Below, in pieces: positions 1-16,393 of a DNA stretch of 16,393 nucleotides. Under the pieces are notes generated by a model that saw only the letters and a program-made list of their open reading frames with translations, made no database searches and was not told the DNA's origin. Origin of the DNA: a virus (lineage: Duplodnaviria; Heunggongvirae; Uroviricota; Caudoviricetes); the IMG/VR virus record IMGVR_UViG_2778261657_000002. One strand, 5' to 3'. Positions within the stretch are counted from its first letter, which is position 1. Every line of letters begins with the position of its first letter. Made by a program: the position numbers and the translations under genes.

Positions 1-296
1 CTATTTATCGGAAGGTTTATCTTGCTGCGGTTTGTTGTTGACCATATCGCACAACATAGAGAGCAGCATTAACCGTACTTTAAAGGGAGAATGACTAAAC
101 ACGCGCATACACCTCTTGAACTCATTCATAAGACCTCCTGACTTGCTAATCCCGTCGATCCTTGAGGGATGATTGCATTACATACAGATATAGCACAGGC
201 TATATTATAAAGCATCAACTATCTACGAAAAACAATAACTTACAGTGTTATCAATAAGTTACGTTAGTTAATATCTGTGAGTATTCGGCAGTATTT

Positions 297-1337
297 CTAA
301 GCTGTCGCGACATTTTTGCGACATTTTAAGGGGTTAAGTCGCACGGCATCTTCAAGGTGGCTTGGGGCGAAATGGGCATAACGCATTGTCATAGTGATGT
401 CAGCGTGGCCGAGAATTTTTTGCAGAACCAGAATGTTCCCGCCGTTCATCATAAAGTGGCTGGCAAATGTATGGCGCAGTACATGGGTAAGCTGGCCGGA
501 GGGGAGTTCAATGCCTGCGCGTTCCAAAGCAGAGCGGAACGCGTTATAGCAGGGTTTGGGGAACAGAGCGCCTTTCGTTTCAGGCAATTCGGATAGAAGT
601 TCATCATCAAGGGGGATTGTTCTGTTGCGCTTCCCTTTGGTTTTGACGAACGTAACTTTATCGCCTGCGATCTGAGAGCTTTTCAGCGTTGCCGCTTCAT
701 TCCATCTTGCGCCGGTCGCAAGACAGATTTTTACGACTAGCTCCAAGTATTTTACTTTGCTTCGTTTGCATTCCAGCAAAAGCAGCTCAATTTCTTCAGC
801 AGTGAGGAAAGCCATTTCGGTTTCATCAGTACGATACTGTCTGACGTTTTCCAGTGGGTTGGGGGCTGACCATTCCCCGATTCGTTTCAGCTCGTTGAAC
901 ATAGCCAGGAAGTAAGCATGTTCAAGGTTCATTGTTTTCGGGGAAACCTTGGATACTCTGCTAGTGCGGGCATAATGCCCATCAAGCCTTTTTGCGCGGT
1001 AGGCCGTGAACAGCTGGGCATTAAACTCTGTAGCTAGCGGGAATCCCATGCACTCTGCCGCCCAGGTCATAGCGTCTTTGCGCTTTTGACCATTGCGCAA
1101 AGCTACTCCGTGGCGTTCATACCACATTGTGATCAGGTCTATTAAAGTTCGTTTGTCCTTCCCTTCACCCAGCCAGGGCGCACTGTCTACTTTCTGAAGC
1201 GTATGGTTCTCAAATGCCAGGGCTTCCCCCTTCGTGGCAAATTTTTTACGTATGCGCTTCCCGTTCTTACCATTACTACGGTTGACGGTGTAGAAGTCGG
1301 CGATCCATTCGCCTGTCGGAAGTTTACGAACACTCAT
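297..1337 (-). CDS. int: Phage tyrosine integrase (site-specific recombinase)
   Basis: The C-terminal catalytic region carries the tyrosine-recombinase signature LTHVLRHTFASHF...ILGHADITMTMRYAH (R, H-x-x-R and the nucleophile Y). It lies immediately downstream of the cI-like gene, with the cI stop and int ATG arranged as TGAaATG, as in 186. The ORF track starts at a TTG at 1346; I prefer the in-frame ATG at 1337. Confidence 0.93.
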   Translation of the reverse strand: MSVRKLPTGEWIADFYTVNRSNGKNGKRIRKKFATKGEALAFENHTLQKVDSAPWLGEGKDKRTLIDLITMWYERHGVALRNGQKRKDAMTWAAECMGFPLATEFNAQLFTAYRAKRLDGHYARTSRVSKVSPKTMNLEHAYFLAMFNELKRIGEWSAPNPLENVRQYRTDETEMAFLTAEEIELLLLECKRSKVKYLELVVKICLATGARWNEAATLKSSQIAGDKVTFVKTKGKRNRTIPLDDELLSELPETKGALFPKPCYNAFRSALERAGIELPSGQLTHVLRHTFASHFMMNGGNILVLQKILGHADITMTMRYAHFAPSHLEDAVRLNPLKCRKNVATA

Positions 1338-1338
1338 T

Positions 1339-1917: not shown

Positions 1918-2036
1918 GAAAGTTTTACCTTGAAATCTTGCGCGGAGTGAGTTTAAACTCCGCTTTGTAGGTTTAAGTGAATATTGACAGTTACAGCCCT
2001 GTATTGCCGTACAGGTTAACTTATGGAGTTTGCCTC
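1918..2036. promoter_or_regulatory. Lysis/lysogeny switch region between cI and apl (candidate face-to-face pR/pL promoters and operators)
   Basis: Intergenic region between divergent cI and apl. It contains a consensus -35 hexamer TTGACA (1984..1989, plus strand), an inverted repeat GCGGAG-N10-CTCCGC (1942..1963) enclosing the perfect palindrome GAGTTTAAACTC (1949..1960), and a CTGT-N8-ACAG palindrome (1999..2014). Promoter assignment is inference from 186 biology. Confidence 0.5.
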
Positions 2037-2258
2037 ATGCGTCCGAACATTACAATCATCATCCCAGAGCCATACCTGCCTTTAGACGAGTATTGCCGCC
2101 GTACTGGTACCAACAAAGAAACCGCCAGGAACCTGATCGAATACGGGAAATTACCTATTAAGCCGAAGGGTAAGCAGAAGAAAGGCCTGGTCGAAGTCAA
2201 CATGGCCGCGCTCACTATTCAGGCTTTAAGCGAATGTGACATTTCGCTTAACGCGTAA
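2037..2258 (+). CDS. apl: Apl/Cox-like excisionase and transcriptional regulator
   Basis: Small basic protein (73 aa from the ATG at 2037, with a GGAG ribosome-binding site 8 nt upstream) and first gene of the rightward operon opposite cI, the position of apl in 186 and cox in P2. The ORF track's longer 93-aa version begins at a GTG inside the switch region. Confidence 0.7.
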   Translation: MRPNITIIIPEPYLPLDEYCRRTGTNKETARNLIEYGKLPIKPKGKQKKGLVEVNMAALTIQALSECDISLNA

Positions 2259-2288
2259 TCCATCCTACGGATTAGGGAGAGGCAAACA

Positions 2289-2792
2289 ATGTTTGATTAC
2301 CAGACCTCTAAACATGCGCACTTTGATGCGGCTTGCCGAGCATTTGCAATTGAGCACAATCTTGAAGATGTGGCCGCTGCCGTTGGTATGAGGCCACAGA
2401 TCCTGCGTAATAAACTGAACCCAGCGCAACCGCACCGCCTGACCTGTGATGAACTTTTGGCTATCACGGATTACACCGAAGATGCGCGTTTACTGGATGG
2501 GATGCTGGGGCAGATTAACTGCCTTCCATCCGTACCGGTGAACAATGCAACAGAAGGCAACATGCAACTGTGTGCACTGAGCGCCACAGCCAGTGTGGGC
2601 GCGATTGCTGGGGAAGCCGTATCAGCTGGTCATATGACCGCCGCCCGCCGTACTCAAATTCTGGATCGTGCCCGAGATGCAATCCGTAGCTTATCCGTGC
2701 TGGCTTATACCGTTGAAAGCCGTATTCACTCTGCGCCGGTTTTGGCCGCTGCGGTGGATCTGGTCACAACCAACGCCACCGGCCTGATGTGA
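2289..2792 (+). CDS. cII: CII-like lysogeny establishment activator
   Basis: 167 aa, directly after apl. The N-terminus (MFDYQTSKH...ACRAFA...LRNKLNP.QPH) resembles what I recall of 186 CII (169 aa). A GGGAGAGG ribosome-binding site precedes the ATG. Confidence 0.75.
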   Translation: MFDYQTSKHAHFDAACRAFAIEHNLEDVAAAVGMRPQILRNKLNPAQPHRLTCDELLAITDYTEDARLLDGMLGQINCLPSVPVNNATEGNMQLCALSATASVGAIAGEAVSAGHMTAARRTQILDRARDAIRSLSVLAYTVESRIHSAPVLAAAVDLVTTNATGLM

Positions 2793-2801
2793 GGGAGAAC
2801 C

Positions 2802-2975
2802 ATGAAAGCGTTTGTCACTTACCTGAAAAACGAATCACCGGCCATGCAATTGCCCAGTGGTTCAACGGGCTGGATTGAACTGCCGAACGGTCAGCGCTGG
2901 AACCCTGGCCACATGTACAAATTCAATGGCCAGCAGCCGCGTCGCCCGTGGTGGCGTCGTCTGATGGGGCTATAG
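2802..2975 (+). CDS. Hypothetical small early protein (57 aa), not in the ORF track
   Basis: ATG at 2802 preceded by GAGGGAGA. It translates to MKAFVTYLKNESPAMQLPSGSTGWIELPNGQRWNPGHMYKFNGQQPRRPWWRRLMGL and stops with TAG at 2973..2975. It fills the gap between cII and the next ORF in the same orientation. Confidence 0.45.
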   Translation: MKAFVTYLKNESPAMQLPSGSTGWIELPNGQRWNPGHMYKFNGQQPRRPWWRRLMGL

Positions 2976-2984
2976 GGGGACGCT

Positions 2985-3413
2985 ATGGCGATTAGCCAGG
3001 AACAGCAAAAGCGCGGGCTGGAGCATTTAAAACAGATCCGCCGCAAATACTTCAGCGAAAGCAGCGAGGCCGCTGAATGGTGGGACAACTTGACACCGGA
3101 GTGGCGCGGCGTAGTACTTCATGCTGCTGCGGTTACTTCTGGTACCGGGGCATTTAAAGCCCATTTAAGCAAGTGCTGCTGGCGTGAGCTTTATGAACGC
3201 CTGGGCTATCGGGACATGATTCAACTGCGCCAGGGCATTTCACGGGCGCGGTTAACGTTTGAAGGTTTCGGCAGTTTACGTGACAGCGATTTTTCGAAAC
3301 GTACCGCGAACCGCCCAATCAAGAAGGTTCATCCAATTTATAGCAGCAGCGGGGTGCAGATGGTGGTTGCACCTCATATTGTCCAGAAGTTACAGCAACA
3401 GGGGAATCACTGA
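2985..3413 (+). CDS. Hypothetical early protein (142 aa)
   Basis: ORF with a GGGGGA ribosome-binding site, in the early rightward operon; no recognisable motif. Confidence 0.6.
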   Translation: MAISQEQQKRGLEHLKQIRRKYFSESSEAAEWWDNLTPEWRGVVLHAAAVTSGTGAFKAHLSKCCWRELYERLGYRDMIQLRQGISRARLTFEGFGSLRDSDFSKRTANRPIKKVHPIYSSSGVQMVVAPHIVQKLQQQGNH

Positions 3414-3814
3414 TGTCCATTATTTCGGTTGAAGGTAAATCACTAGGGGCAGAGCTGGCTGTGTGGGGCGTCCCGCATAACTACGCATTAGCGTTTGCAG
3501 AGAAAAGCACCAGTAAAAATGGGCGTATCGCTTTGCATCCGTTCTTCTTCAACGACACTGAACACATGACAAATCCGCGTCACTGGCTGGCGATCAATGC
3601 TGCTTTCTGGTGCTGCGTATATCGCGAAGCGAAAAGCAAAGAAGCCCAGATAGAAGCGCTGGCGGGGATTCGTGCAATTTTCTATACAGCCGGGGCGTTG
3701 GGCGTTGGCGAGATAAAAGCGCTGATCCAGGAGTGGTGGCGGATAACCTATGAGCTGCACCTGATTCCGGCACCGAACTACTCAGCCGCCACAGTACAAC
3801 CCACTTTTCACTAA
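3413..3814 (+). CDS. Hypothetical early protein (133 aa)
   Basis: Its start overlaps the previous stop (TGATG), indicating translational coupling; no recognisable motif. Confidence 0.6.
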   Translation: MSIISVEGKSLGAELAVWGVPHNYALAFAEKSTSKNGRIALHPFFFNDTEHMTNPRHWLAINAAFWCCVYREAKSKEAQIEALAGIRAIFYTAGALGVGEIKALIQEWWRITYELHLIPAPNYSAATVQPTFH

Positions 3815-3881
3815 TTAACAGCCTGAATTTTTTGGCCACGGTTCAAGTGGCCGGGGATTCTTTTGCCTTAAGGAAACCAAA

Positions 3882-4115
3882 ATGCACATGACACGTCAGG
3901 ATTTACCCGCAACAAAATCAGGCACCGACCTGCTGGCCATGCTCACCAAAGCCACGCAGGAAGGTAAAGCCGCAGCAGCTGATCTGTGTTCCACCCGTCT
4001 GGATAAGCTGGCCACTCATGCGGCCAATGAAGGTTTAAGCGCAACGGAAATCGTTGAGTTAATCCGCGAAGAAGCCGCAGCGATTTGCAGCAAAGGCGGT
4101 GCGGCATGGAATTGA
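3882..4115 (+). CDS. Hypothetical small protein (77 aa)
   Basis: AAGGAAA ribosome-binding site 7 nt upstream of the ATG; Ala-rich, probably helical; its 3' end overlaps the exonuclease start. Confidence 0.5.
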   Translation: MHMTRQDLPATKSGTDLLAMLTKATQEGKAAAADLCSTRLDKLATHAANEGLSATEIVELIREEAAAICSKGGAAWN

Positions 4116-4810
4116 GCACTCGCAATCAACTTTTTTCGGCCATTTTGGGTGGGGTGGTTTCTGGTGCCAGAGCTAAAGAAGGGGCTTCGTTGCGCGATGT
4201 GATTCGCCAGTGTTGGAGGATCACCGATCAGTCTCTGTATTTTTCCGACCGTCTGGAAACCGAACAACAGATAGCAAAGCGCTGGATTGATAAGGGCTTT
4301 GTCATTCTTGATACAGAAACCACAGGACTAGGATTTGATGATGAAATTGTAGAAATTTCGATCATCGACTGTGCTGGTTACGTTTTGCTTAATACGCTGG
4401 TCAAGCCATCGAAATCTATTCCAGAAGCGGCAACTGCAATTCACGGTATTACGGATGAAATGGTTGCTAATGCACCATCATGGTTGGAAATTCTGCCGAA
4501 AGTATTGGAGTTAACAAGTAAAGGCTGGGTCGCATATAACGCAAAATTTGATGCGCGTATGTTGCGCCAGTCTGGTGGGGATTATGAACAGCATGAGGAT
4601 ATATGCACCCCTGAGTGCGTAATGCAGCTGTACGCAGATTATAACGGTGAATGGGATGTTGTACGCCGTAAAACCCGCTGGAAACGACTTGTGGATGCAG
4701 CGGCGGCGCTTAAGGTTGATGCCGGAGAAGGTGCACCACATAGAGCGTTGTATGACTGCAATCTGACGCTTGGTGTGATCCTTGCTATTGCAGAAGGCGG
4801 TGCAAAATGA
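4106..4810 (+). CDS. DnaQ-like 3'-5' exonuclease (DEDDh family)
   Basis: Exo I motif ILDTETTGL, Exo II motif YNAKFD and Exo III motif H-x4-D (HRALYD) are all present in the correct order. The ATG at 4106 is preferred over the TTG at 4085 used by the ORF track. Confidence 0.85.
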
Positions 4811-5136
4811 CAATCAAAATCCACACGATAAAGATTGCGCCGAAATACCTTGATGCAGTAGTGGCTGGCCAGAAAAAGGCCGAACTGCGAAAAAACGATC
4901 GCGGGTACAAAACCGGTAATGTTCTTTCACTTTGTGAGTGGAAGCACGGGAAATACACCGGGCGTGAGTGGGCGGCGGTTATCACCCATGTTTTTCCTGT
5001 AAATGAAATTATCGCTGATACCGAAAACTGGGCGGTTTTGTCCATCTGTTCACTGTCGCCGCTTGAAGTGCTGGAATACATCATTTCAAACGGTGTCACT
5101 GAGGCGTTAGCTGGCGGAGGTCAATATGGCCGTTAA
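4807..5136 (+). CDS. ASCH/PUA-like (DUF3850-type) domain protein
   Basis: 109 aa. The N-terminal region ([40 protein letters not shown]) resembles the small beta-barrel ASCH/DUF3850 proteins common in phages. Its start overlaps the exonuclease stop (ATGA). Confidence 0.55.
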
Positions 5137-5986
5137 AACTCCGCTTAAATGGGTGGGCAGCAAAGCCCGCCTTATGCCTAAGCTGCGTCCGCACCTTCCA
5201 GAAGGTAAACGCCTGGTTGAACCGTTCGCAGGTTCCTGCGCCGTCATGATGAATACGGATTATGACGAGTATCTGATCGCAGATGTGAATCCTGATCTGG
5301 TTAATCTTTATAAGGCGATGGCGTATCACACTGATGCGCTGCTGAATGAGCTGGAGATCCTGTTTACTGCCAGTTCGTTAGGTGATGAAGAAAGCCGTGC
5401 CGTTTTCTATTACGCCGTGCGTGATGCTTTCAATCTTTCTGGTGGTAAGGCTGGTTCTGAATCTGTTGAAAATGCTGCGCGTTTCCTGTACCTGAATCGC
5501 CACTGCTTCAATGGCCTGTGCCGGTATAACCGCCGAGGACAGTTCAACGTCCCGTTCGGTAAGTACAAAAAGCCTTATTTCCCCGCTGATGAAATCCGCG
5601 CCTTTGCTGAAAAAGCGAAACGCGCAACGTTCATTACTGCCCACTATTCAGAAACACTCGATTTGGTTCGGGACGGGAATGACGTTGTTTACTGTGATCC
5701 GCCTTATCTGACTGAAAGCGACAATTTCACCGCTTACCATGAGCGCGGTTTTACGCATATGGATCAGGGGAGGCTGGCGCGTAAGTTGCGCCGTCTGGCC
5801 AGAAAAGGTGTGCCGGTTGTGGCCTCTAACGCCGATCTGGAAATGGTTCATTACCTGTACGCCGGATTTGAAGCCGTTCGCGTTAATGCCCCGCGAAGTA
5901 TTGGTGCCGCAGCTACATGCCAAAAGACGGCCGCTGAGTTGATTCTGAAGTCTCCGCTTGATTCCATTGTGGTGGCTTGTGCATGA
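5126..5986 (+). CDS. dam: Dam-family DNA N6-adenine methyltransferase
   Basis: Catalytic DPPY motif (VVYCDPPYL), N-terminal AdoMet-binding region (KWVGSKARL...EPFAGSCAV) and overall length typical of GATC-type Dam methylases. GGAGG ribosome-binding site. The target specificity is not shown by the sequence. Confidence 0.9.
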
Positions 5987-8004
5987 CGCTGGCAATAAAC
6001 GAACAATGCTATGCCGTTGATGCCTGGAGGCGGGAAACATTCGCGCCAGGCACTCCGGCAGACGCGACAATCACAGAACGCCGCCTGTGGGCTGTAAACC
6101 CGCAGGATTATGAATGGCGATCCCGGTACCTGCATGAGATACCCGACTGGTTAGCCGGGTATTTTGGCCGTCGTTACGAAAAGCTTTTTTCTGGCCGTGA
6201 CGGGCGTCGCCGTGCCAATACATTCCTGCGCAAAACAATCGGTGAGAATGTATTGCCACGTCTGCGCAAAGTGGCTGCGCGTTACTCGCTGGCCGCTGAT
6301 GCTGCTGATCTTCCTTTTGGTAAGTCGCTGGAGCGCTTGCCGTCACTAGACCGTCCTGATCTTAAAAAACTGGCTGGCCAGATATCTGGCTGGATTTCCC
6401 AGTCACTTTATGACTTCACCGAACAGTTTGATTCCGGCGCTGACGACGCCAGAGAGCTGCATCGCCGCACCCTGGAATCATACCGCCATCTTTGTGCCTG
6501 TTGCCTGATGCTGAATAACCAGCCGCCGTACTGGGCTGAACATGAGGCCAATGAAGGTCAACTGGAAATGCGTAAGGCGGAATCCGGGATACTGCGCATG
6601 ATGGCGCCGGAATGGTGGTACCTGCGTTTTAAACGTGCTCGTGATACGCAGCGCGAGCACATGGCCATTACGGTGGGACAGGTGCAAAAAGCGGCCAGCG
6701 CTTATGTATCTCGCAAAACACTGGGCGAATGGATAGACCAGAAAAAGCGGAATCTGGAGTTCTTTAAAAAGTTTGATCTGCTGAATGATGAGGGGCTGCG
6801 CATTGCACTGGACAGCATGGTGCACCGCAGCGTTGCAAATCCGGCGATCCGTCGATGTGAACTAATGGTAAGAATGCGAGGGTTCGAAGATATGGCCAAT
6901 GAAGAAGGGCTGGCCGGTGAGTTTTACACTATCACCGCGCCATCACGTTTCCATGCGGTTCACAGCAAAGGGGGCTTTGTATCGCAATGGGATGGAAGTA
7001 CACCGCAGGATACCCAGCGCTATTTATGCGGCGTATGGGCAAAAGCACGCGCAGCGATCTCGCGTGCGGGTATTCATGTATTTGGGTTTCGGGTTGTTGA
7101 GCCTCACCATGACGGGACACCGCACTGGCATATGTTGCTTTTTATGCGTCCGCAGGACGTGGACACGGTGCGCGATATTCTTTGCTATCACGCCAGAATT
7201 ACCGATTCTGAAGAACTGCAATCTGAAAAGGCGCTGAAGGCACGTTTTCATGTTGAAGCTATCGATCCCGCCAAAGGTTCGGCCACGGGCTACATCGCGA
7301 AATACATTTCAAAAAATATTGATGGTTTTGCGCTTGATGGTGAGCAGGACGAAGAAACCGGCGAAAACCTGCGTGATATGGCTAAGTCCGTTTCCGCGTG
7401 GGCTTCACGCTGGCGTATTCGCCAGTTTCAGCAGATTGGTGGTGCGCCGGTAACCGTCTGGCGTGAGCTGCGTCGGTTGCGGGATCAGGTACTGACAGAT
7501 CGCAGAATGGATGCGGTTCTGGCCGCTGCTGATGTCGGGGACTGGGCTGCATATACCCAGGCGCAGGGAGGGGCACTGGTTGCCCGCCGTGATCTGGTTG
7601 TTCGTCTGGCCTATGAAATTACGGAACAGGGCAACGAATACGCGGAGGACGTGCAGCGCGTACAGGGTGTTTATTCTCCTTTGGTTCCTGATTCAGAAGT
7701 TTGCACCCGTCTGGTTAAGTGGCAAAAGGTTGCGAAGTTGGCCGAAGCGCCAGCGGAGGCGGGTTTTTCTGGCGGCAACGCCGCCCCTTGGAGTTCTGTC
7801 AATAACTGTACGGAAGGGGGAACCCGCAGACGGTTAAAACTGGAATTATGCAGTCGGGGTTTTGATGGTTCTGATGAAGAAATAGCGATTCTCCTGCGGG
7901 GTAGTGGTTTGAGATTTGGTCAGGGCGCTCTGATTTACCGCAACGGACGGCTTAAAGAGACTCAAAACGAGCCATTACAGGAGCTGTGGCCGGGGTGGTT
8001 ATAG
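5983..8004 (+). CDS. A: Replication initiation protein gpA (rolling-circle nickase)
   Basis: About 674 aa, with the metal-binding HUH-type motif (TPHWHMLLF) and the paired active-site tyrosines (GYIAKYISK) characteristic of the P2/186 A protein. The start overlaps the dam stop (ATGA). The origin should lie inside this gene but I could not locate it. Confidence 0.9.
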   Translation: MTLAINEQCYAVDAWRRETFAPGTPADATITERRLWAVNPQDYEWRSRYLHEIPDWLAGYFGRRYEKLFSGRDGRRRANTFLRKTIGENVLPRLRKVAARYSLAADAADLPFGKSLERLPSLDRPDLKKLAGQISGWISQSLYDFTEQFDSGADDARELHRRTLESYRHLCACCLMLNNQPPYWAEHEANEGQLEMRKAESGILRMMAPEWWYLRFKRARDTQREHMAITVGQVQKAASAYVSRKTLGEWIDQKKRNLEFFKKFDLLNDEGLRIALDSMVHRSVANPAIRRCELMVRMRGFEDMANEEGLAGEFYTITAPSRFHAVHSKGGFVSQWDGSTPQDTQRYLCGVWAKARAAISRAGIHVFGFRVVEPHHDGTPHWHMLLFMRPQDVDTVRDILCYHARITDSEELQSEKALKARFHVEAIDPAKGSATGYIAKYISKNIDGFALDGEQDEETGENLRDMAKSVSAWASRWRIRQFQQIGGAPVTVWRELRRLRDQVLTDRRMDAVLAAADVGDWAAYTQAQGGALVARRDLVVRLAYEITEQGNEYAEDVQRVQGVYSPLVPDSEVCTRLVKWQKVAKLAEAPAEAGFSGGNAAPWSSVNNCTEGGTRRRLKLELCSRGFDGSDEEIAILLRGSGLRFGQGALIYRNGRLKETQNEPLQELWPGWL

Positions 8005-8081
8005 CGGTGTAAGTATGTGAAAGGCATTCATTTGTCAGTAGATGGCAGGAAATTAAATTTCACAATTCGTGCTTTAAGGTG

Positions 8082-8101
8082 TACTGTATGTATATCCAGT
8101 T
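8082..8101 (+). promoter_or_regulatory. Candidate LexA (SOS) box
   Basis: TACTGTATGTATATCCAGTT matches the E. coli LexA consensus TACTGTATATATATACAGTA at 17 of 20 positions, with CTG-N10-CAG retained. It lies 22 bp upstream of the ATG at 8124. Confidence 0.5.
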
Positions 8102-8123
8102 ATTTATTGCTTGTGGGGGCTAA

Positions 8124-8330
8124 ATGGATCTTTTGGAGGCGTCGGCACAGCTGGAACGCATTGAGTTATTGGCCAAAATTGCCCATATTTACGAAAGTAA
8201 CCAGAGAGAGAAAACAATCGCTTTGGCCTGGATTGGAGAGCTTGCGGGAGAGGTTCGCGAAATGGTAAAAAAGGAAGGGCAACGCCCCCAGAATGGGGGC
8301 ATTTTAGGCGGCGGGGGGCATTTTCAGTAG
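8124..8330 (+). CDS. Small ORF downstream of the LexA box; candidate Tum-like SOS-inducible antirepressor
   Basis: 68-aa ORF (MDLLEASAQLERIELLAKIAHIYESNQREKTIALAWIGELAGEVREMVKK...) with a balanced, helical-looking composition and a GGGGG stretch 5 nt upstream of the ATG. Position after gene A and behind a LexA box parallels tum of phage 186. The function is inferred from context only. Confidence 0.4.
   Translation: MDLLEASAQLERIELLAKIAHIYESNQREKTIALAWIGELAGEVREMVKKEGQRPQNGGILGGGGHFQ
8262..8300 (-). terminator. Candidate intrinsic terminator for the minus-strand late operon
   Basis: On the minus strand, immediately after the ogr stop: GCCCCC-attct-GGGGGC hairpin, then gttGCCCttcc and a TTTTTT run. 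The T-run is not directly adjacent to the main stem, so this is tentative. Confidence 0.35.
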
Positions 8331-8627
8331 GTCTAATGCCATCTGGCGCTGATCGGGTGAAAGTGCATTCAGTATTTTTTGCACCATCGCATCACCCGTT
8401 TTAGCGCTGGGGCTGAGAGTGTGGGAGAACGTCAGATTCATAACAAACGTGTGGCCACACTCAACATCTGAACAGGCGCAGTAAATATCCGCAATCTGCC
8501 GGTGCTTCCGGTTCGTTTTACGAATAACAGCCTTTGAGCCGCATTCCGGGCATTCGATTTTCAGAACTCGCATATTCCATGCTCCAGCTGTTAAATGATG
8601 CCTGGATTTTAGCCTGTTTCGCCTCAT
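8304..8627 (-). CDS. ogr: Ogr/Delta-family zinc-finger late-gene transcription activator
   Basis: Contains C-P-x-C ... Y-C-x-C-x4-C-x2-T-F (ECPECGSKAV...IYCACSDVECGHTF), matching the Cys pattern I recall for P2 Ogr and 186 B. The ATG overlaps the portal stop (ATGA). An internal Met (MRVLKIECPEC, start at 8573) is an alternative start. Confidence 0.8.
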   Translation of the reverse strand: MRRNRLKSRHHLTAGAWNMRVLKIECPECGSKAVIRKTNRKHRQIADIYCACSDVECGHTFVMNLTFSHTLSPSAKTGDAMVQKILNALSPDQRQMALDLLKMPPAA

Positions 8628-9685
8628 GCCGCACCCTTATCCGTTGATTCTGTGTAACTTAAATCAAAGTTAAGGTGTAGCCTTTTCGGTATTTCGGGAT
8701 CGCCGTTAACGGCCAGCATGAAACGGCGCTGGATGGGGGCTATTTCGCTTTTCTTGTAAATGCGTTCAGCCTTTTCAACATCCCCCAGTCCGGCAGTGTT
8801 CTGCGGGACAATACCGGCGAGGCCAGCAGGGAAACGGTGCGCGTTCAGAATGTCCTGGGCGCTGATGTTTTTGATATTGGCAAATTCATCTTTTGCAGAA
8901 ATATCCCCCATTTCGATGAACTTGATTGCATCCCCATCCCCGCCTGGTATGTTCACCAGAATAGTGGAGAAGTTACCGATACCTTTGCTGTCACGCAGCT
9001 GCTGTTCAATTTCTTCTTCCATTTCATCCGTCATACTGGGATCGCGGGTATAAAGAATACCGCCTGTGTGCGCACCGTTGTGGTAATAGCGGCGTCGGAA
9101 AATGACCGCTTCACTGTTAAGTAACGCGGAATGCACACCGCCGATGTAGTCTGGCAGTCCGTAGATATGCTGTTGCGGGTCATACATTTTGATAAAGATA
9201 ATATCTTCTTCTGGCCATACCTGCGGTTCCCCTTCCTGTAACACCACGTAGTCACCGGGTTTATCCTGGGCGTTATCTCTGACTTTGCGGCGGCGAATAT
9301 ACAGACCGGGCAAGGGTTCAAGTGCGATCACGTCGCCCCAGCCGTTACGAATTTTGGCAATCGCAATATCCCCAAAGGTTATATAGTCAAACGCTGCCGC
9401 TTCCAGCTGGTCGTGAATAAGCCCGCCCCCCTGATAGTCTGAAACAATCATGTTTTTACGGGCGTGAATGATGCCGCCGTGCTGACCGTTAAGATTAATC
9501 AGTTGTGCGAGTGCCAGCCGGTCAATCGGCTGGGTGAAGTGATCGGCGGCATTGTCGTACCAGATATCACGGTAATCTGTGCCGGTAGTCAGAACCGGTT
9601 CAGGTTTGCCGAATGTGATAATGCTCATCTTTTTTGATTTGTCGCCGCGCTGGTCGCGCTTAACAAAGCGTTTCTTTTTACTCAT
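8624..9685 (-). CDS. Q: Portal protein (gpQ-like)
   Basis: 353 aa (P2 gpQ is about 344 aa). It lies immediately downstream of, and overlaps by ATGA, the terminase large subunit gene, and is divergent from the scaffold and capsid genes, as in P2. Confidence 0.85.
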   Translation of the reverse strand: MSKKKRFVKRDQRGDKSKKMSIITFGKPEPVLTTGTDYRDIWYDNAADHFTQPIDRLALAQLINLNGQHGGIIHARKNMIVSDYQGGGLIHDQLEAAAFDYITFGDIAIAKIRNGWGDVIALEPLPGLYIRRRKVRDNAQDKPGDYVVLQEGEPQVWPEEDIIFIKMYDPQQHIYGLPDYIGGVHSALLNSEAVIFRRRYYHNGAHTGGILYTRDPSMTDEMEEEIEQQLRDSKGIGNFSTILVNIPGGDGDAIKFIEMGDISAKDEFANIKNISAQDILNAHRFPAGLAGIVPQNTAGLGDVEKAERIYKKSEIAPIQRRFMLAVNGDPEIPKRLHLNFDLSYTESTDKGAA

Positions 9686-11457
9686 GCTGCCTCTTTCCTT
9701 ACACCCCAGCGGGATTTCGGTTTGTTTTCATAGTTAAGGGGTTCGTTATGCAGACCGTGGGTAATCGCCCAGAATGCCTCTGCGTGGCCGGTATCCTGGC
9801 TGCGGTCAGCGACAAACGTCATGGTGTTGCCGCTTTGTGTGGTGGTTCGGCGCACAGACATAAAGCTGGCGGCGATCTCTTTCATATTTTTATCCCACTC
9901 AATACGCTGGCTTTCCACCACGTCCACCGCTTTCAGTACCAGCTTATTTTTTGTGTTCAGGTCGTAACGAATGGGGACGGCCACGCGCATGGCAAAATGC
10001 TGAATGTTGTCAAAAACACCCTGGCCAATGCCGGTAACGTCCACCCCCAGATAAGTGAAGTTGTATTTTTTGAACAACTGCTCGATCTGTTTTGCCTGGT
10101 ACCGGAAGTTCATGCCTTTCCAGTAAATCACCTTCAGAACGCGGAACTTCTCCACGGCGAGCATCGGTGGGGCGATGATGACAAAACAGGACAAATCCCC
10201 GCTGCGAGCCGGGTCAAAGCCACCCCACACTGGCCTGTCACCGAATGGCCGCGCTGCATCAGGGTTGTGATCCTGCCAGGTGTCGATTTCAACTCCGCAG
10301 GCTTCCAGGTCGGAAAAGCTGAAAACGGAGTCTTTGCTGTCAACGAACACGCACATATAGAGCATGTTAAAAGTGGCGTCGTTGTAGCGGTTGCGAAGTT
10401 TCTCGATGTTCGCCAGGTTGAAACCGCCCGTAATGGCATCTTCCATCGTAATGACGTAGCGCCATTGCCCATCCGGGCAGAGTCGCCCGCCGTCACGCAT
10501 TTCGTTAAAAGACGGAAACTTAATGGCCGCACGTTTTTTACTGCCCTGTTTCCACTCATCGCCCGTCCAGAACGGGTAAGCCTGGTGCGTTTTTGCTGAT
10601 GGCGTTGAAAAATAGGTGGTACGCCACTTGTCATGTGTGGCCATTGCGCTGGCCACTTCGTTAAGTTTTGCAAAGTTTGGCACCCAGAAATATTCGTCAC
10701 AGTACAGGTGGCCACTGTAGGACTGGGCGGTGTTTTTGTTGGTGGAGAGAAAACGCAGTTCTGCGCCGTTGCTTAAGCGGATCGGGTTGCCGGTCAGCGT
10801 AATACCGAAATACTGCTCTGCAATATTCACGATGTAAGACCGGAACACTTCAGCCTGAGCCTTTGACGCTGACAGAAAGATTTGCGGAGCGCCGGTCATC
10901 ACCGCGTTTTCAAACGCTTCAAACGCAAAATACCAGGTCGCACCGATCTGGCGGCTTTTCAGGATGTTCCTGACAAGCTGGCCAATGTTATTGCGCAGGT
11001 GTTTCTGATATTCAAAAAGATGTTCCTCAGCCCATGCGTCAAAGTCCTCCTGCGTCAGCGAGGTAATATCGTTTTTCTTGTATTTCCGTTTACTGCGCGG
11101 TTCGTCGTCATTGTTGTCTCGTGCAGCTGCTTGCCCGGAACTCTGACCGCTGGCCATTTTCTCTTTGTGTTTATTACTCTGCGCACGCAGTTTCGTGGCA
11201 TGAGCAATGAGCATGTCCATTTCTTTCAGGTCTAGATCGGTTTTGTTATCGCGGCTGGCCAGCAGCTGGTAACGGCGTTCAATTGCTTCCTCTGTGCTTT
11301 CAAAACTGAGCAAATCCGCCCAGCTGTATTTCTCCGCCCAGTAGTAAACGATCCGCGCATTCGGCAGATTTAATTCAGATGCGATTTCCTTTGGCGTATA
11401 GCGGCGCAGATAAAGTGCGCGAACAACGCCTTTTAATTCTTCAGAGTATTTAGCCAT
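9682..11457 (-). CDS. P: Terminase large (ATPase) subunit (gpP-like)
   Basis: 591 aa (P2 gpP is about 590 aa). Terminase-type deviant Walker A (KSRQIGAT, compare T4 gp17 SRQLGKT). First gene of the leftward late operon. Confidence 0.9.
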   Translation of the reverse strand: MAKYSEELKGVVRALYLRRYTPKEIASELNLPNARIVYYWAEKYSWADLLSFESTEEAIERRYQLLASRDNKTDLDLKEMDMLIAHATKLRAQSNKHKEKMASGQSSGQAAARDNNDDEPRSKRKYKKNDITSLTQEDFDAWAEEHLFEYQKHLRNNIGQLVRNILKSRQIGATWYFAFEAFENAVMTGAPQIFLSASKAQAEVFRSYIVNIAEQYFGITLTGNPIRLSNGAELRFLSTNKNTAQSYSGHLYCDEYFWVPNFAKLNEVASAMATHDKWRTTYFSTPSAKTHQAYPFWTGDEWKQGSKKRAAIKFPSFNEMRDGGRLCPDGQWRYVITMEDAITGGFNLANIEKLRNRYNDATFNMLYMCVFVDSKDSVFSFSDLEACGVEIDTWQDHNPDAARPFGDRPVWGGFDPARSGDLSCFVIIAPPMLAVEKFRVLKVIYWKGMNFRYQAKQIEQLFKKYNFTYLGVDVTGIGQGVFDNIQHFAMRVAVPIRYDLNTKNKLVLKAVDVVESQRIEWDKNMKEIAASFMSVRRTTTQSGNTMTFVADRSQDTGHAEAFWAITHGLHNEPLNYENKPKSRWGVRKEAA

Positions 11458-11619
11458 ACGGATAATTATGCCGTGGTTGTGATGAAAAAACGGTGGTGTT
11501 AATTCGTGTCTGTTCGGTAAAGCGTTATAACCGAACTGTTCAGAATAAAGCGTAATGCAGTGGCGGTTTTATTTGGCAATAATTGAGTTCGCAGGGTCAG
11601 TGAATAAATCAGGGGGGAT
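11458..11619. promoter_or_regulatory. Divergent late promoter region between P and O
   Basis: Intergenic region between divergently transcribed terminase and scaffold genes, where P2 has its Ogr-dependent late promoters. Contains the inverted repeat GTTCGGT-N11-ACCGAAC (11512..11536). I could not find the exact TGT-N12-ACA spacing I recall for P2 late promoters. Confidence 0.4.
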
Positions 11620-12420
11620 ATGTCGCATTTAAAAACTGACTGGCTGTGTGTTGCCACAGAAGGCGATACGGTTGATGGCAGGGTCATGGAACGGCAATGG
11701 ATTATTGACATGGGGGAAACCTATGATGTCACCAATTATGCCGCACTAATCTGGCCTGAACATGAACGATATGCCGGTAATTTTGGCGAAGTGCTAAAGG
11801 CGATGTGGCAGGACGGGGAAGATGGGCTGGCACGATTATATGTGAGCCTGTGTCCTAACAAGCGCCTGTTGTATGCCAATGATGAAGGGCAATTGCTTTA
11901 TTTCTCTGTTGAGCCAGAACTTAACTGGCGCGGAGGTGAGCGAACGTATCTGGGCGGACTGGCCGTAACGGACAATCCCGCCAGTGTGGGCACTACACGG
12001 TTGCGCTTTAGTCGGCGCAGACTATCAAAACAGGGATATTACAGTTGCGTAATTTCCCGTGACGGAAAAATTAAGCAGGAAGAACTGATGAAAAAAACCT
12101 GGCACCATTTATTTGGCATTAAGCCAAAGTTTGAAAGCGAAGGTCAGCAGGATGATACGCAGCAGGGTGATGATAAATTGCAGGCGCTTGCGAATGCTGT
12201 TAACGATCTGGAAGCGCGAGTGGGGGCAATTGAAACACAACTGAGCACTGTTCAGGAAGATGTGGATACTATTGTTGAAGTTGTGGACACGGAAGAGTTT
12301 GCGGCCATTCGTGATAATGCGAAAGAAATCGTAACCCGTTTTAACGATCTGGATAATAAGAATACCCGCTCACCGGGGCGTAAAATTTCAGAAAAAGCCG
12401 GGAAATATAATTTTCTGTAA
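11620..12420 (+). CDS. O: Capsid scaffolding protein (gpO-like)
   Basis: 266 aa. The segments TEGDTVDGRVM and YLGGLAVTDNPASVGTT match what I recall of P2 gpO (GDTCDGRVI, YLVGLAVTDDPASLGT). AGGGGGG ribosome-binding site. Confidence 0.85.
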   Translation: MSHLKTDWLCVATEGDTVDGRVMERQWIIDMGETYDVTNYAALIWPEHERYAGNFGEVLKAMWQDGEDGLARLYVSLCPNKRLLYANDEGQLLYFSVEPELNWRGGERTYLGGLAVTDNPASVGTTRLRFSRRRLSKQGYYSCVISRDGKIKQEELMKKTWHHLFGIKPKFESEGQQDDTQQGDDKLQALANAVNDLEARVGAIETQLSTVQEDVDTIVEVVDTEEFAAIRDNAKEIVTRFNDLDNKNTRSPGRKISEKAGKYNFL

Positions 12421-12483
12421 TTCGCTTTAACGCTGATTAGCCCAGAATAAATTTTATATATCGCTTAATTGCGAGGGAGTTTT

Positions 12484-14532
12484 ATGCACCTTAATAATCG
12501 TGCGCGGGATTTACTGGATAAATATTCGGCGGGGATGGCGCAGCATTTTGGCGCACGTGATACCAGTCGTTATTTTTCCCTGAATGACCCGCAGGAAAAT
12601 GCGCTGCGTCTTGCGTTGCTGGAGTCCGTCGAGTTCCTGAACATGATCACCTGTCTGGATGTTGACCAGCTGAGTGGTCAGGTGATTTCTGTCGGTTCTT
12701 CCGTGCTGCATACCGGCCGCAGTGAGAATGGCCGTTTTATTCGTCGTGTGGGTGTTGACGGTAATGACTATTCGCTGGTTGAGACAGACAGCTGCGCCGC
12801 GTTGCGCTGGGATCTGCTTTCGGTTTGGGCAAATGCGGGTAAGGATGAAAACGAGTTTTTCAATCTTGTCCAGGCATTCACCACACAGGCTTTTGCACTG
12901 GATATGCTGCGTATTGGTTTTAATGGTAAAAGCCGCGCAAAAACCACTGACCCGGAAGCCAACCCGAACGGCGAGGATGTGAACGTTGGCTGGCATGAGC
13001 GTATGAAAACGCTGCTGGGCGGCAATCAGATTATGACCGATCCCGTGGTGCTCGATGAGGCCGGGGATTACAAGTCACTGGATGCAATGGCGTCCGATCT
13101 GATTAACGCCAAAATCCCGGCGCAGTTCCGCAATGACCCGCGTCTGGTTGTCCTTGTCGGTGCCGATCTGGTCGCTGCTGAACAGTACCGACTGTATCAG
13201 GCAGCTGACCGTCCGACTGAAAAAATTGCTGCGCAGATGCTGGGGAGCACCATTGCTGGCCGTCAGGCCATTATCCAGGATTACATCTGGTACCAGTTAC
13301 CTGATGGTTCGCTTTACGTCGGCGGCGTAGAAAAGTCATTGTTTGCCGGTCGTCCAGTAGAAATCCCGTCAGAGTTCAGCCAGGGGGCTGCTGGCGGTAA
13401 CTCTGTGACATTACCAGTGATCCAGACTATACGGCCAGGGGTGGAGATGAACGGTGAACGCGTGACTAAAGTTCACCTGACTAATGACACGATGGCGATC
13501 ACATGGACGCCGAGAAACCGCGCAACGGGTAAACCTTTGCAGAAAACACCAGCGCAACGGCAGATTGAAAGCCATTACCCGGAACTGGCATCCGGGCTTC
13601 ATTTGCCAAAGATGGCCAGAGTCGTGGCGCATTCAGAGCCGGTAAAAAGCGGTAACTTTGCCGATCCCTTCCGGCCACGTTACGCCGTGGACGTGCAGCT
13701 GCTTGACGCAGACGGAAATCCGGACAATCAGACGCCTGTTTATTCAGCGGTGCCGCTGCCGGTACCAATGGCCGGGAATGATTCAGGTATGTTTCAGTTC
13801 CCGCCAGAAGGGACGCTGGTTGAGGTCGCATTCACAGGAGGCAGACCGGATAAACCTTTTATCAGGCAGACGCTGCCGAATGGTACCAGTCTGCCGGACG
13901 TTAAACCCGGTGAGCAATTGCAGCAGCAGCGGGAAGAAGTATCCCAGAGGGTGACTCTGGCGGGTGACTGGGTAAGGCAGACCGATCAGACCATCAGTGA
14001 AACATCGATGGTGCGAACGGTAAAAGCAGATACAGAACAACGTGATCTGGTCAGTCGCGAAACCACGGTTAAAGCCACGGATAAAACCATTGTGGTGGGG
14101 ACCGCCACCCTGCTAGCCGGAGCCTTTCAGCAGGTCAGTGCCGGGGATTTTAGCCAGGCCGTGAAAGGTAACAGGCTGGCCAGCATTGAAGGAAACGAAG
14201 AAACGGACATAGCAGGACAGCAGTCCATTAAAGTGGGCGGTGCTGTAGCCGTGGAGGTTGGCGAAAGCCTGACAGAGAAGATTGCCGCGCTGCGTAAATC
14301 AGTGGCCGCTGGCGGTCAGCAGGTCATGGGGGAAACAGTCCATATTGGCAGTGAGAATATCAACGCCCTGACCATGATGCTGGACACTATTGATTTACTG
14401 GCAGAACTGGCGCTGCAATGCGCGAACCATTCACACCCCACCGTTGGGACTCCAACCAATGCCGCCGCGTTCACACAGACGGCGACGAAAGCCGGGCAGA
14501 CCCGGAGCAAGTACCAGAACATCATTGCCTGA
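12484..14532 (+). CDS. Chimeric ORF: N-terminal gpN-like major capsid region fused in frame to a C-terminal gpV-like baseplate spike region
   Basis: About 682 aa from the ATG at 12484 (GAGGGAG ribosome-binding site), roughly twice the size of P2 gpN (about 357 aa). The N-terminal third to half has capsid-like segments (GFNGKSRAKTTDPEANP...VGW, GDYKSLDAM, DPRLVVLVGADL). The C-terminal part has an OB-fold-like segment (FPPEGTLVEVAFTGGRPDKPF) and a terminal HxH motif (CANHSHPTVG) like the iron-binding spike tip of gpV-type proteins. No stop codon or frameshift separates the two parts. Confidence 0.6.
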   Translation: MHLNNRARDLLDKYSAGMAQHFGARDTSRYFSLNDPQENALRLALLESVEFLNMITCLDVDQLSGQVISVGSSVLHTGRSENGRFIRRVGVDGNDYSLVETDSCAALRWDLLSVWANAGKDENEFFNLVQAFTTQAFALDMLRIGFNGKSRAKTTDPEANPNGEDVNVGWHERMKTLLGGNQIMTDPVVLDEAGDYKSLDAMASDLINAKIPAQFRNDPRLVVLVGADLVAAEQYRLYQAADRPTEKIAAQMLGSTIAGRQAIIQDYIWYQLPDGSLYVGGVEKSLFAGRPVEIPSEFSQGAAGGNSVTLPVIQTIRPGVEMNGERVTKVHLTNDTMAITWTPRNRATGKPLQKTPAQRQIESHYPELASGLHLPKMARVVAHSEPVKSGNFADPFRPRYAVDVQLLDADGNPDNQTPVYSAVPLPVPMAGNDSGMFQFPPEGTLVEVAFTGGRPDKPFIRQTLPNGTSLPDVKPGEQLQQQREEVSQRVTLAGDWVRQTDQTISETSMVRTVKADTEQRDLVSRETTVKATDKTIVVGTATLLAGAFQQVSAGDFSQAVKGNRLASIEGNEETDIAGQQSIKVGGAVAVEVGESLTEKIAALRKSVAAGGQQVMGETVHIGSENINALTMMLDTIDLLAELALQCANHSHPTVGTPTNAAAFTQTATKAGQTRSKYQNIIA

Positions 14533-14622
14533 CCATTCCAGACAGCCCACAAAACGCGGGGTTTGTCGTTTTCTCAGTTCCTTGATAGGATTATTGCATA
14601 CTCAAATGATAGGAATAGGGAT

Positions 14623-14955
14623 ATGAAAAATTTCATTATATTAGCTGTAGGAGCAGCAGTTTCATTCAATGTGTTTGCGGCTGAGGTTGTTTATGTGCCA
14701 ACAGATACGAAGGCTAGTTACACGATTTTAGATAAGACTCGCGACGGCAGCATGGCTACTATAACAACCGAAAGAAAGGGGCCGTCTGGAACATCATATT
14801 CAAAGCGGCTGTACGACTGTACTGCCGGGACAGTTAAATATCTTGGAGACGGTGAGACCATCGAGCAGATGAATAACTCGGCACCAGATCCAAATATGGC
14901 CCCTATAGTTGACCGCTCAATTGCATACTACATTGGACAAAAAGCCTGTCAGTAA
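14623..14955 (+). CDS. Small exported protein of unknown function (110 aa with a signal peptide)
   Basis: N-terminal MKNFIILAVGAAVSFNVFA-AEV is a typical Sec signal peptide with an AXA-like cleavage site. Two cysteines in the mature part, AGGAA-type ribosome-binding site, followed by a strong intrinsic terminator. GC content is lower than in the phage genes. The ORF track's longer form starts at 14563, but the signal peptide begins at M21. Confidence 0.6.
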   Translation: MKNFIILAVGAAVSFNVFAAEVVYVPTDTKASYTILDKTRDGSMATITTERKGPSGTSYSKRLYDCTAGTVKYLGDGETIEQMNNSAPDPNMAPIVDRSIAYYIGQKACQ

Positions 14956-14995
14956 CTACGTTCTTATATCGGTTGATATGAATTGAACACACCTT

Positions 14996-15020
14996 AACCC
15001 GCATTGTGCGGGTTTTTTTG
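14996..15020 (+). terminator. Rho-independent terminator
   Basis: AACCCGCA-ttg-TGCGGGTT hairpin followed directly by TTTTTTT, 40 nt after the stop of the exported-protein ORF. Confidence 0.75.
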
Positions 15021-15532
15021 TACCCACCACCAGACCGCACAGAACGCTCTCAGCAGGCGGGACAACACTAGGGTAACCACTGCGACACCGCAATAAGATC
15101 AAATTCACAGCGACGCTCTGAGGTAGCCACATGCAGACAAAATAAATCTTTCGCAGACAAAAACGGCACTACACCGCACCCGCCTGCGGTTTCTGGATCG
15201 ATAAATTTTTTCAGTTTTATTTTTCTACAAACCAGACTGTCATCTCGCGCCAGCACTGGTGGCTTTGCGGAAAACCCAAACTGAAAAGATTGAAAAGAAT
15301 TTCAGTGTTTATCAGTTTTTCGTGGGGATAAGGTTGTTGTGAGTATTCTATCTTTATGATTTATATATATTATTTTTATTTTCTTTGATGTTATATCGAA
15401 GTCGTGTTTCAGCCTGATTTATTGAACTGATTGATTTTATGGCAATTTACCATATAGATGGCTTGGATTTTATTGCAATAAATCATAAAATAGATCATTC
15501 AAAAATCAATCATTCTTTATGCTAGGTATCTT

Positions 15533-16393
15533 ATGGATAGCAAGTTGAATCTTGATGAGGCAGGTAGAATCGCTTGGCAGCATGCAGCACTTGTTTTGAG
15601 CAAGAAAATTGGTATCGGTTCTAAAAAATTTAATGAAGACCTGAAGGTTTTAATTAATCAATTTGGGAATATTGAAAACATTTATCAATATCACTTTGGC
15701 ATGGTTCCAATCGATCCTGATTTGATTCGCGTACTCGATAAAAAATTTTCCAACCTAAATTTTAAGTTTGAAGTATTACAATTTAATGATGAACTATATC
15801 CCAACGCATTGAGACAAATTTATGGGATTCCCCCAATCTATTATTATAGAGGCGATGTCAGTTTGTTGGGGATTGAGGATAGTATCTCTTTTGTTGGGAC
15901 GCGAAATCTTGATGAAAAAGCGTATATTGAACATGGTGTTGATGTTATAAAAAGATTATTTTCTGCGGGCTATAAGGTCATCGTAAGTGGATTGGCTAAA
16001 GGTTCGGATACCCTCGGACATAAAACAGCAATAGAATTAGGGGGGCGAACCATTGCTGTATTAGGAACACCTCTTGATGTATCTTATCCAGCGGAAAATA
16101 AAGTGTTGCAAAATCAAATAGCAACTGAGCATTTAGTAATTACTGAATATCCTATCGGGATTGGTAGTTTTGGAACATACTTCGCAAATAGAAACCTCAC
16201 TACCGTAAGTTTATCGCACAAAGGAATAGTAGTTGCACGTGCTGGTGATAAAAGCGGTACTCAATATGCGATCAAAACTTGTATTGAGCAAGGTAAGCCG
16301 GTTTACGTTTTGGAAAATAATATCTATGAGCCTGATTTTAAATGGGTAGAAAAATATAAAGATAAAATAAAAGTAATTAGAATGACAAAATAA
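15533..16393 (+). CDS. DprA/Smf-family (SLOG-fold) DNA-processing protein homologue
   Basis: 286 aa. The Rossmann-like core matches DprA signatures: PPIYYYRGDVSLL...ISFVGTRNL...VIVSGLAKGSDTLGHKTAIELGGRTIAVLGTPLDVSYPAENKVLQNQIA...LVITEYPIG...FANRNLTTVSLSHKGIVVARAGDKSGTQ (compare E. coli Smf VVSGLARGID..AH..AL..GG.TIAVLG.GLD.IYP..N..L). The gene is very AT-rich and stops at the last base of the window. Confidence 0.8.
   Translation: MDSKLNLDEAGRIAWQHAALVLSKKIGIGSKKFNEDLKVLINQFGNIENIYQYHFGMVPIDPDLIRVLDKKFSNLNFKFEVLQFNDELYPNALRQIYGIPPIYYYRGDVSLLGIEDSISFVGTRNLDEKAYIEHGVDVIKRLFSAGYKVIVSGLAKGSDTLGHKTAIELGGRTIAVLGTPLDVSYPAENKVLQNQIATEHLVITEYPIGIGSFGTYFANRNLTTVSLSHKGIVVARAGDKSGTQYAIKTCIEQGKPVYVLENNIYEPDFKWVEKYKDKIKVIRMTK

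Follow-up and report, generated by a model that had tools for sequence, protein, structure and literature searches.

The 16,393-nucleotide stretch of DNA analysed here (the window; IMG/VR virus record IMGVR_UViG_2778261657_000002, Caudoviricetes) carries, in our confident view, a defective Quadragintavirus-like prophage with an internal deletion of 13,730 bp, in which the interval 14533–14622 is a native operon end and the DNA of lower guanine-plus-cytosine (GC) content to its right is the phage's own cargo. A sequence-only reading, made from the letters without database searches, had instead taken this interval for the right-hand breakpoint of a prophage remnant that abuts an unrelated island. 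The history that we propose is as follows. A single illegitimate recombination event at the pentanucleotide TATCC (13272–13276) would have deleted the 13,730 bp and left an in-frame fusion of a capsid gene to a spike gene; the stepwise fall in GC content further right would reflect two accessory modules inside the phage, an insert at about 14565–14997 (0.44) and a slot from 15317 (0.35); and the interval itself would be the end of the late tail operon, holding the spike stop codon, a weak, mutated hairpin, and the DNA that leads up to a small open reading frame (ORF).

When positions 12400–16393 were compared by megablast with 5,426 complete Escherichia coli genomes, three genomes were ∼100% identical from query position 870–873 on, and in 20KM0223N (NZ_CP151045) the start of the match falls inside the 567-amino-acid (aa) gene that ends a complete 32.3-kb prophage. 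By BLAST, window positions 1–13276 correspond to positions 7565–20840 of the 20KM0223N reference (99.95% identity) and positions 13269–16393 to 34563–37687 (99.97% identity), 13,730 bp further on; one deletion of this length is the sole break between the window and the intact prophage. The junction on the plus strand (13272..13276) is a TATCC present in both parents (5 bp), with 7 of 8 positions matching over 13269–13276, and the event would be typical of illegitimate, microhomology-mediated recombination. Alignment to ESSI2_ev129, a phage isolated from plaques, reveals an identical break, with window 13276 falling at its position 15477 and window 13273 at 1491. The phage gene order had been thought to stop after the chimeric ORF; the break lies instead inside that ORF, and everything to its right is collinear with the intact prophage.

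In 20KM0223N, the genes concerned run in the order capsid, small terminase, head completion, tail terminator, neck, sheath, tube, holin, endolysin, spanin, chaperone, tape measure, DUF2590, baseplate J, tail protein, fibre, fibre assembly, a hypothetical protein, an HP1-ORF34-like baseplate protein, and the 567-aa spike. The window has lost all of this from capsid codon 265 to spike codon 149, including 20 complete genes; these supplied the small terminase, head-completion, tail, lysis, chaperone, tape-measure, baseplate, and fibre functions named above. The earlier description of a prophage remnant without tail and lysis modules was thus correct, and the ORF list and Pfam confirm that such genes are absent from the window, as is the small terminase. 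Its list of expected P2 genes (J, W, I, H, G, FI, FII, E, T, U, D) was the wrong template, as the tail module of this phage group is of the HP1/ESSI-2 type, with the spike as the final late gene. Given the missing capsid C-terminus, small terminase, and tail and lysis genes, virion production has presumably been lost.

Because capsid codon 264 is joined in frame to spike codon 150, the junction leaves an intact reading frame of 682 aa (12484..14532, plus strand) composed of residues 1–264 of the capsid protein gpN and residues 150–567 of the central spike/baseplate protein. The ORF as such extends over 12469–14532 (687 codons), and the start annotated in relatives is the ATG at 12484. Domain assignments agree with its chimeric nature, which had been recognized from the letters: residues 16–272 match Pfam Phage_cap_P2, the C-terminal part has a weak Phage_base_V match and gp5 C-terminal repeats, and in PHROGs a major head protein (8–272) is followed by a baseplate protein (phrog_2258, 263–687, E = 1.4e-188). 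From 13272 on the sequence is 100% identical to 20KM0223N, and positions 13277..14532 (plus strand) are the native 3′ part of the last tail gene, a central spike with a T4 gp5-like beta-helix; residues 414–509 of the 567-aa spike match the gp5 C-terminal beta-helix in PDB structures.

A fusion with missing tail genes could also arise as an assembly artefact, through a collapsed or misjoined contig, and this is suggested by the absence of the junction from every complete RefSeq E. coli genome and by the sharing of just 5 bp at the junction. However, an overlap of 5 bp is too short for an assembler misjoin, and 8 public contigs (including GCA_016114235.1 and the Logan assemblies ERR11506692 and SRR30494797) encode precisely this 682-aa fusion protein; they stem from independent projects and assemblers and have the same neighbours, which argues that the deletion is real. 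The three fusion-contig loci displayed come from three separate samples, and in all of them the fusion is followed by the small ORF, a DprA-like gene, a 437-aa gene, and a DUF6680 gene; the two fusion contigs that are long enough run on into mntR, ybiR, and ldtB. In addition, one contig (L010, from SRR30494797) carries the same 13,730-bp deletion together with a private deletion of 1,013 bp (contig positions 3662–5521; window 5305–6317), which has a 7-bp overlap and fuses the Dam methylase and gpA genes. This further deletion indicates vertical inheritance within a lineage rather than assembly error, and it shows stepwise decay inside that lineage. We therefore regard an artefact as having a minimal chance of being the explanation and return to a genuine deletion.

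The flagged interval (14533..14622, plus strand) is native phage sequence, the intergenic stretch that separates the spike stop codon from the small ORF. The intact 20KM0223N prophage has it base for base, so the remnant has no breakpoint here; the actual junction lies 1.26 kb upstream, at 13272–13276. In related intact prophages, the interval is conserved at 92–98%. The composition shift that drew attention to it is real, as GC content falls from 0.553 in 13277–14532 to 0.433 in 14533–14622 on calculation, and further right it is 0.441 in 14623–14955, 0.457 in 14956–15316, 0.269 in 15317–15532, and 0.353 in 15533–16393. A small mosaic boundary does lie inside the interval, at ∼14565, where the left edge of a polymorphic insert is found, and the drop in GC content thus starts at a real module boundary, within the phage genome.

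These observations bear on the view that 14533–14622 is the right breakpoint of the remnant and that the AT-rich DNA is an unrelated island abutting it. That the GC drop begins in the interval, that a real module boundary lies at ∼14565, and that no tail genes follow, in the window or past its end, are all in keeping with it. On the other hand, an intact prophage carries the interval and its flanks without a single difference, the conserved backbone of the phage takes over again at 14998–15316, the true junction is elsewhere, and an infectious phage has an equivalent slot between spike and integrase; moreover, attR lies 4.2 kb further right, with no extra att core, integrase, or tRNA. A breakpoint at this position thus has a very slim chance of being correct. 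Of the supposed abutting island, the foreign composition stands, but the DNA sits between attL and attR, within the phage, and attR-proximal genes are not lacking, being the very genes that lie right of the interval. At the syntenic locus, the intact prophage is collinear across the interval, and related strains also provide an empty mntS–mntR site.

The ends of the prophage were located from that empty site. In almost all E. coli genomes, the mntS–mntR interval is uninterrupted, and when the empty site of strain AH01 was aligned to a lysogen, two blocks were obtained that overlap by 18 bp (about 196–213). This overlap holds the attL core, GCTATATTATA (199..209, plus strand), which has only two copies, attL and attR, in the 57.7-kb reference; the two ends of the prophage, attL and attR, thus go back to one attB. 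In L008, a contig with the same deletion, the attR core lies at window-equivalent position 18817 and is followed by mntR. These positions place the window from 214 to its end inside the prophage, and the true right end (attR, then mntR) is reached ∼2.4 kb outside the window. Another candidate for the att core, the 19-bp direct repeat GCGACATTTTTGCGACATT (307–325, and 115 bp left of attR), was rejected, as a composite empty-site query showed it to be ∼226 bp off; with GCTATATTATA given by the alignment to a real empty site, the 19-mer is read as probable integrase (Int) arm sites. It comprises tandem GCGACATT motifs (307..325, plus strand) inside the 3′ end of int, ∼108 bp right of the attL core. 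On the left side of the attR core, at a distance of 67–118 bp, one or two copies of GCGACATT are likewise present in each E. coli prophage sampled at the site (equivalents were located in L004, L005, L011, L013, and L014 as well), and in the 57.7-kb reference, where this copy is at 39993–40011, the motif occurs nowhere else on the same strand. The GCGACATT motifs are probably arm-type sites for Int, and since they flank both cores, the AT-rich cargo would lie inside the attP arms.

Between the small-ORF insert and attR, the prophage consists of a conserved anchor and a variable slot. The anchor (15022..15316, plus strand) is non-coding phage backbone. In CUWW10, AHB29, EC42405, mip270_05, Combat13F7, PSJ-16, and ESSI2_ev129, conservation extends up to exactly 15316–15319; the backbone at 14998–15316 is kept in all relatives, and homology then resumes only at the attR core. 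Within 15022–15316, Rfam gave no match even at E ≤ 1. The slot starts at 15317 (15317..16393 in the window, plus strand, GC 0.35) and runs ∼2.4 kb past the window to attR, as seen in L008. Across seven sampled genomes, six different gene sets occupy the space between the anchor (15181–15316) and attR (loci compared: L001 21905–25560, L004, L005, L011, L012, L013, and L007 29678–30742). The window, 20KM0223N, and PSS-07 have the DprA-like gene, the 437-aa gene, and the DUF6680 gene; CUWW10 and PSJ-16 have a serine acetyltransferase; AHB29 has an acetyltransferase and an OLD/HEC-04-like AAA ATPase; EC42405 has a 411-aa hypothetical protein; mip270_05 has a hypothetical protein and a PIN-domain protein; and Combat13F7 has six other genes, including one of DUF6338. 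ESSI2_ev129, an infectious temperate coliphage obtained from the faecal viromes of infants (PMC6969025), has the circular order spike, anchor, serine acetyltransferase, integrase. Because the slot is thus found within the genome of an infectious phage, it is phage cargo and not an island beside a prophage.

It could still be argued that the DNA between 15317 and attR is mobile in its own right, as a satellite or as a tandem island using the same attB, since its GC content (0.35 vs 0.50) differs, its sharp boundaries are common to strains, and defence genes are often carried on satellites (PMC9122126). However, the block is just 3.5 kb long and is without integrase, replication or packaging genes, or an internal att core. 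Also, on the right of the block come the putative Int arm motifs, next to the attR core, so the block is inside attP-P…attP-P′, and the equivalent slot is packaged in ESSI2_ev129 virions. We give an independent element a slim chance and treat the block as cargo of the prophage. The slot looks like a cargo or defence hotspot at a position other than the P2 hotspot adjacent to cos.

Two further features were seen in the anchor and in the public ESSI2_ev129 record. At window 15133–15162, the anchor contains two copies of the direct repeat GCAGACAAAA with a 20-bp spacing. CAGACAAAATAAATCTTTCGCAGACAAAAACGGC, a block identical in ESSI2_ev129, supplies the T-tract of a terminator-like hairpin on the minus strand (15177–15163) that could stop leftward transcription from minus-strand cargo. 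The ESSI2_ev129 record (L007, NC_049394/LR597640) begins and ends (∼1–43 and 30879–30927) with a palindromic stretch that contains CTGTCTCTTATACACATCTGACGCTGCCGACGA and its complement. We take CTGTCTCTTATACACATCTGACGCTGCCGACGA to be an Illumina Nextera adapter, and the record ends look like adapter contamination where the circular assembly was opened.

The hairpin in the flagged interval appears to be a decayed relic of the tail-operon terminator. In ESSI2_ev129, Combat13F7, and mip270_05, the spike stop is directly followed by GCCCGC-loop-GCGGGC-T6 (-13.0 to -13.5 kcal/mol), and the CUWW10 counterpart is CCCGC-AAAAC-GCGGG (-11.4 kcal/mol). Aligned with these, the window has GCCCAC-AAAAC-GCGGGG-TTTGTCGTTTT (14545..14575, plus strand), in which two substitutions cut the hairpin to -4.8 kcal/mol, and we infer that this is a weakened copy of the intrinsic terminator. 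The weak inverted repeat AAAACG-N10-CGTTTT that had been pointed out is indeed present, at 14551–14572, and corresponds to the loop and T-tract of the decayed terminator; as a repeat, it is at chance level, the window having 68 perfect 6-bp repeats with loops of 6–14 nt, or ∼0.37 per 90 bp. A role for it as a recombination site or transposon end was considered and rejected, as it is at chance level, identical in the intact prophage, and explained by the decayed terminator. Folding of 14533–14622 is no better than that of shuffled sequences (z = -0.05). A gathering-threshold Rfam scan of the whole window returned nothing; sub-threshold Rfam matches in 14500–15560 (terminator-like parts of Trp_leader, isrK, and IsrM) were dismissed as hairpin look-alikes, and small repeats in the same region comprised just short two-copy families.

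The polymorphic insert (∼430 bp, 14565..14997, plus strand, GC ∼0.44) follows. Homology to relatives without it ends at window-equivalent 14548–14564 and resumes at 14998–15136. The insert is present in 20KM0223N, CUWW10, AHB29, and PSJ-16, absent from ESSI2_ev129, Combat13F7, and mip270_05, and swapped for another small ORF in EC42405. Its right edge adjoins a strong intrinsic terminator with an 8-bp stem and T7 (14996..15021, plus strand), which is equivalent to the single terminator of the relatives without the insert. Within it lies the small ORF (14623..14955, plus strand), which encodes 110 aa with a signal-peptide-like N-terminal segment and belongs to phrog_13843 (E = 1.9e-47); there was no Pfam, NCBIfam, or PADLOC match. 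Homologues that are 50–64% identical occur in Klebsiella phages Kp4856-1 and Kp4862-1 and in the P1-like Escherichia phage D6. The sequence suggests a horizontally mobile accessory gene with a predicted secreted product. By its presence/absence polymorphism, lower GC content, and flanking terminator, the insert appears to be a moron-like cassette, perhaps with a promoter of its own; alternatively, transcription of the small ORF may come from the late operon, by passage through the weakened terminator.

The slot of the window holds a gene for a 286-aa DprA-like protein of the ShosA type (15533..16393, plus strand). This protein matches Pfam DNA_processg_A (1.8e-44), has PADLOC ShosA PDLC03961 as its best match (E = 2e-52), and matches the solved ShosA structure 9vzo in the PDB (7.6e-12), and it falls under the cut-off of the housekeeping dprA equivalog of NCBIfam (122 vs 191 bits). 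It is a predicted antitoxin or sensor partner of a ShosTA-like anti-phage system, in which a DprA protein is paired with a phosphoribosyltransferase (PRTase). The ShosT toxin has two domains, a hydrolase and a PRTase (PMC11961720), and E. coli is protected from T7 and lambda by a DprA+PRTase pair found in a P2-like hotspot (PMC9122126). In residues 276–418, the neighbouring 437-aa protein matches PADLOC ShosT (4.7e-10), and its layout of a HAD domain plus a PRTase domain, taken from sub-threshold matches, agrees with that of ShosT in PMC11961720. The two genes would thus form a divergent ShosTA-like pair, for which we infer a defence activity. A DUF6680 gene lies beyond the window (L001 24602–25309; L008 15387–16094) beside the DprA-like/PRTase pair in 3 of 3 contexts (20KM0223N, the deletion lineage, and PSS-07). 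Neither PADLOC nor PHROG nor NCBIfam gave a match for this gene, which could belong to the system as its third component or be cargo in its own right.

Several results weigh against the interpretation put forward here, in whole or in part. The whole 12400–16393 stretch was found in 0 of the 5,426 complete E. coli genomes, from which the exact deletion is absent, and the allele is supported by draft and Logan assemblies; a 37-mer spanning the junction had no match among GTDB species representatives, although with one genome per species this is uninformative. ESSI2_ev129 has another integration module, without the GCTATATTATA core, and so backs the position of the slot and not this attP. The weakened hairpin at 14545–14575 was not called by a terminator scan, and the promoter-like site in front of the small ORF (14582–14610) agrees with the consensus at 9 of 12 positions, such sites being no commoner than in shuffled sequences. 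As for the defence pair, the gene for the 437-aa protein is located outside the window, downstream (L001 23137–24450; also in L008), the N-terminal HAD/NIF and C-terminal Pribosyltran Pfam matches of that protein are all sub-threshold, and it has no sequence match to the solved ShosT in the PDB.

The remainder of the window is, from the ORF listing and Pfam, E. coli mntS, then attL, then the left arm of a temperate phage of the P2 family. The chromosomal gene mntS (1..129, minus strand) is the left flank of the integration site, and window position 1 is the end of its coding sequence in NZ_CP151045. After attL come a tyrosine integrase (297..1337, minus strand; Pfam Phage_integrase and Int_N, and the RefSeq annotation of the sister prophage) and a CI-type repressor (1339–1917, minus strand). 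Next come early genes, a Dam methylase (ORF listing and Pfam), and the replication protein gpA (5977–8004; Pfam Phage_GPA). They are followed by Ogr (8304–8627, minus strand; annotated as Ogr/Delta in the sister prophage), the portal (8624–9685, minus strand; Phage_portal), the large terminase (9682–11457, minus strand; Terminase_6N/6C/5), and the scaffold gpO (11620–12420; Phage_GPO). The prophage thus has the P2-family gene set of gpN capsid, gpO, gpP terminase, gpQ portal, gpA, and Ogr. ESSI2_ev129 (NC_049394; Quadragintavirus ev129) shares ∼92% nucleotide identity across 78% of the prophage part of the window; for a 20-kb stretch of the sister prophage, from the capsid gene through the right-end cargo, the identity is 95% over 79% of the length. 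On this identity to a classified member, the prophage is classed as Quadragintavirus-like (Peduoviridae, ESSI-2 group), residing at the E. coli mntS/mntR site.

Three other independent remnants of the same family were found at the mntS/mntR site. In PSS-07 (L006, NZ_AP027673, 7905–8005), a 23.9-kb deletion with a 5-bp overlap extends from a DUF3850 gene to window-equivalent 15071; in Combat13F7 (L013, NZ_CP019245, 4522–6261), an early gene or region is fused to a nearly complete spike gene; and PSJ-16 (L014, NZ_AP027632, 6153–8122) has several deletions and a truncated or partial integrase. All three have kept the right-end cargo. Because the right arm served as the query by which each remnant was detected, however, there is an ascertainment bias, and retention of the cargo is not evidence of selection. 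The idea that the spike-to-attP slot of Quadragintavirus-type prophages at the mntS/mntR site is an undescribed hotspot of anti-phage and host-modifying cargo, and that the host has kept such remnants (the window lineage, PSS-07, Combat13F7, and PSJ-16) through selection for the immunity module and cargo, here the divergent ShosTA-like pair with its DUF6680 gene, as a form of defence-locus domestication in place of neutral decay, is one we entertain as possible but rather doubtful.

As a whole, the locus is ordinary prophage decay and mosaicism and will be unsurprising to a specialist. It has consequences for annotation nonetheless: the prophage boundary belongs at attR next to mntR and not at 14533, the 682-aa ORF should be annotated as a capsid-spike fusion pseudogene derived by deletion, and a DprA label should give way to that of a phage-borne ShosA-type defence component as opposed to a competence gene. 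It also offers a clean, well-controlled example of microhomology-mediated prophage decay, as it can be set against an intact sister prophage, an unoccupied site, and several remnants of independent origin, and the cargo slot of ESSI-2-like coliphages could be mined for defence systems.

Among known elements, the closest is the intact 20KM0223N prophage (NZ_CP151045, 32.3 kb), which is 99.95–99.97% identical over all parts of the window and has the same att site and cargo but keeps the 13,730 bp that the window has lost. ESSI2_ev129, ev015, and ev040 (Quadragintavirus; relatives of Cronobacter phage ESSI-2) share the order gpA, ogr, Q, P, O, N, M, followed by the tail, lysis, baseplate, and spike genes and a cargo slot by int. 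The window prophage differs from ESSI2_ev129 in its integrase/repressor module and att core, in having a ShosA-like gene as opposed to a serine acetyltransferase, in the extra small-ORF insert after the spike, and in the loss of 13.7 kb of morphogenesis and lysis genes. It resembles the cryptic prophages with internal deletions known from the domestication literature in that the att ends, integrase and immunity functions, and accessory genes are kept and the virion and lysis genes are lost; there is no essential difference, and that the capsid-spike fusion is in frame is a curiosity, to be expected by chance one time in three. Like phage morons, the small-ORF insert varies in presence among collinear phages, has a lower GC content and a flanking terminator, and has homologues in unrelated temperate phages, but its promoter is here a 9/12 candidate. 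Finally, the slot shares with the P2-like hotspots (Rousset et al. 2022, PMC9122126) and with ShosTA (PMC11961720, PMC12961424) the form of a high-turnover locus of 1–5 kb between anchors, and, as in ShosTA, a DprA-like protein adjoins a putative hydrolase+PRTase protein. It differs from the ShosTA system in its divergent ShosT-like partner and in that the DprA-like gene precedes the PRTase gene, and whereas the P2 hotspot is next to cos (PMC9122126), the slot described here lies between the last tail gene and attP.

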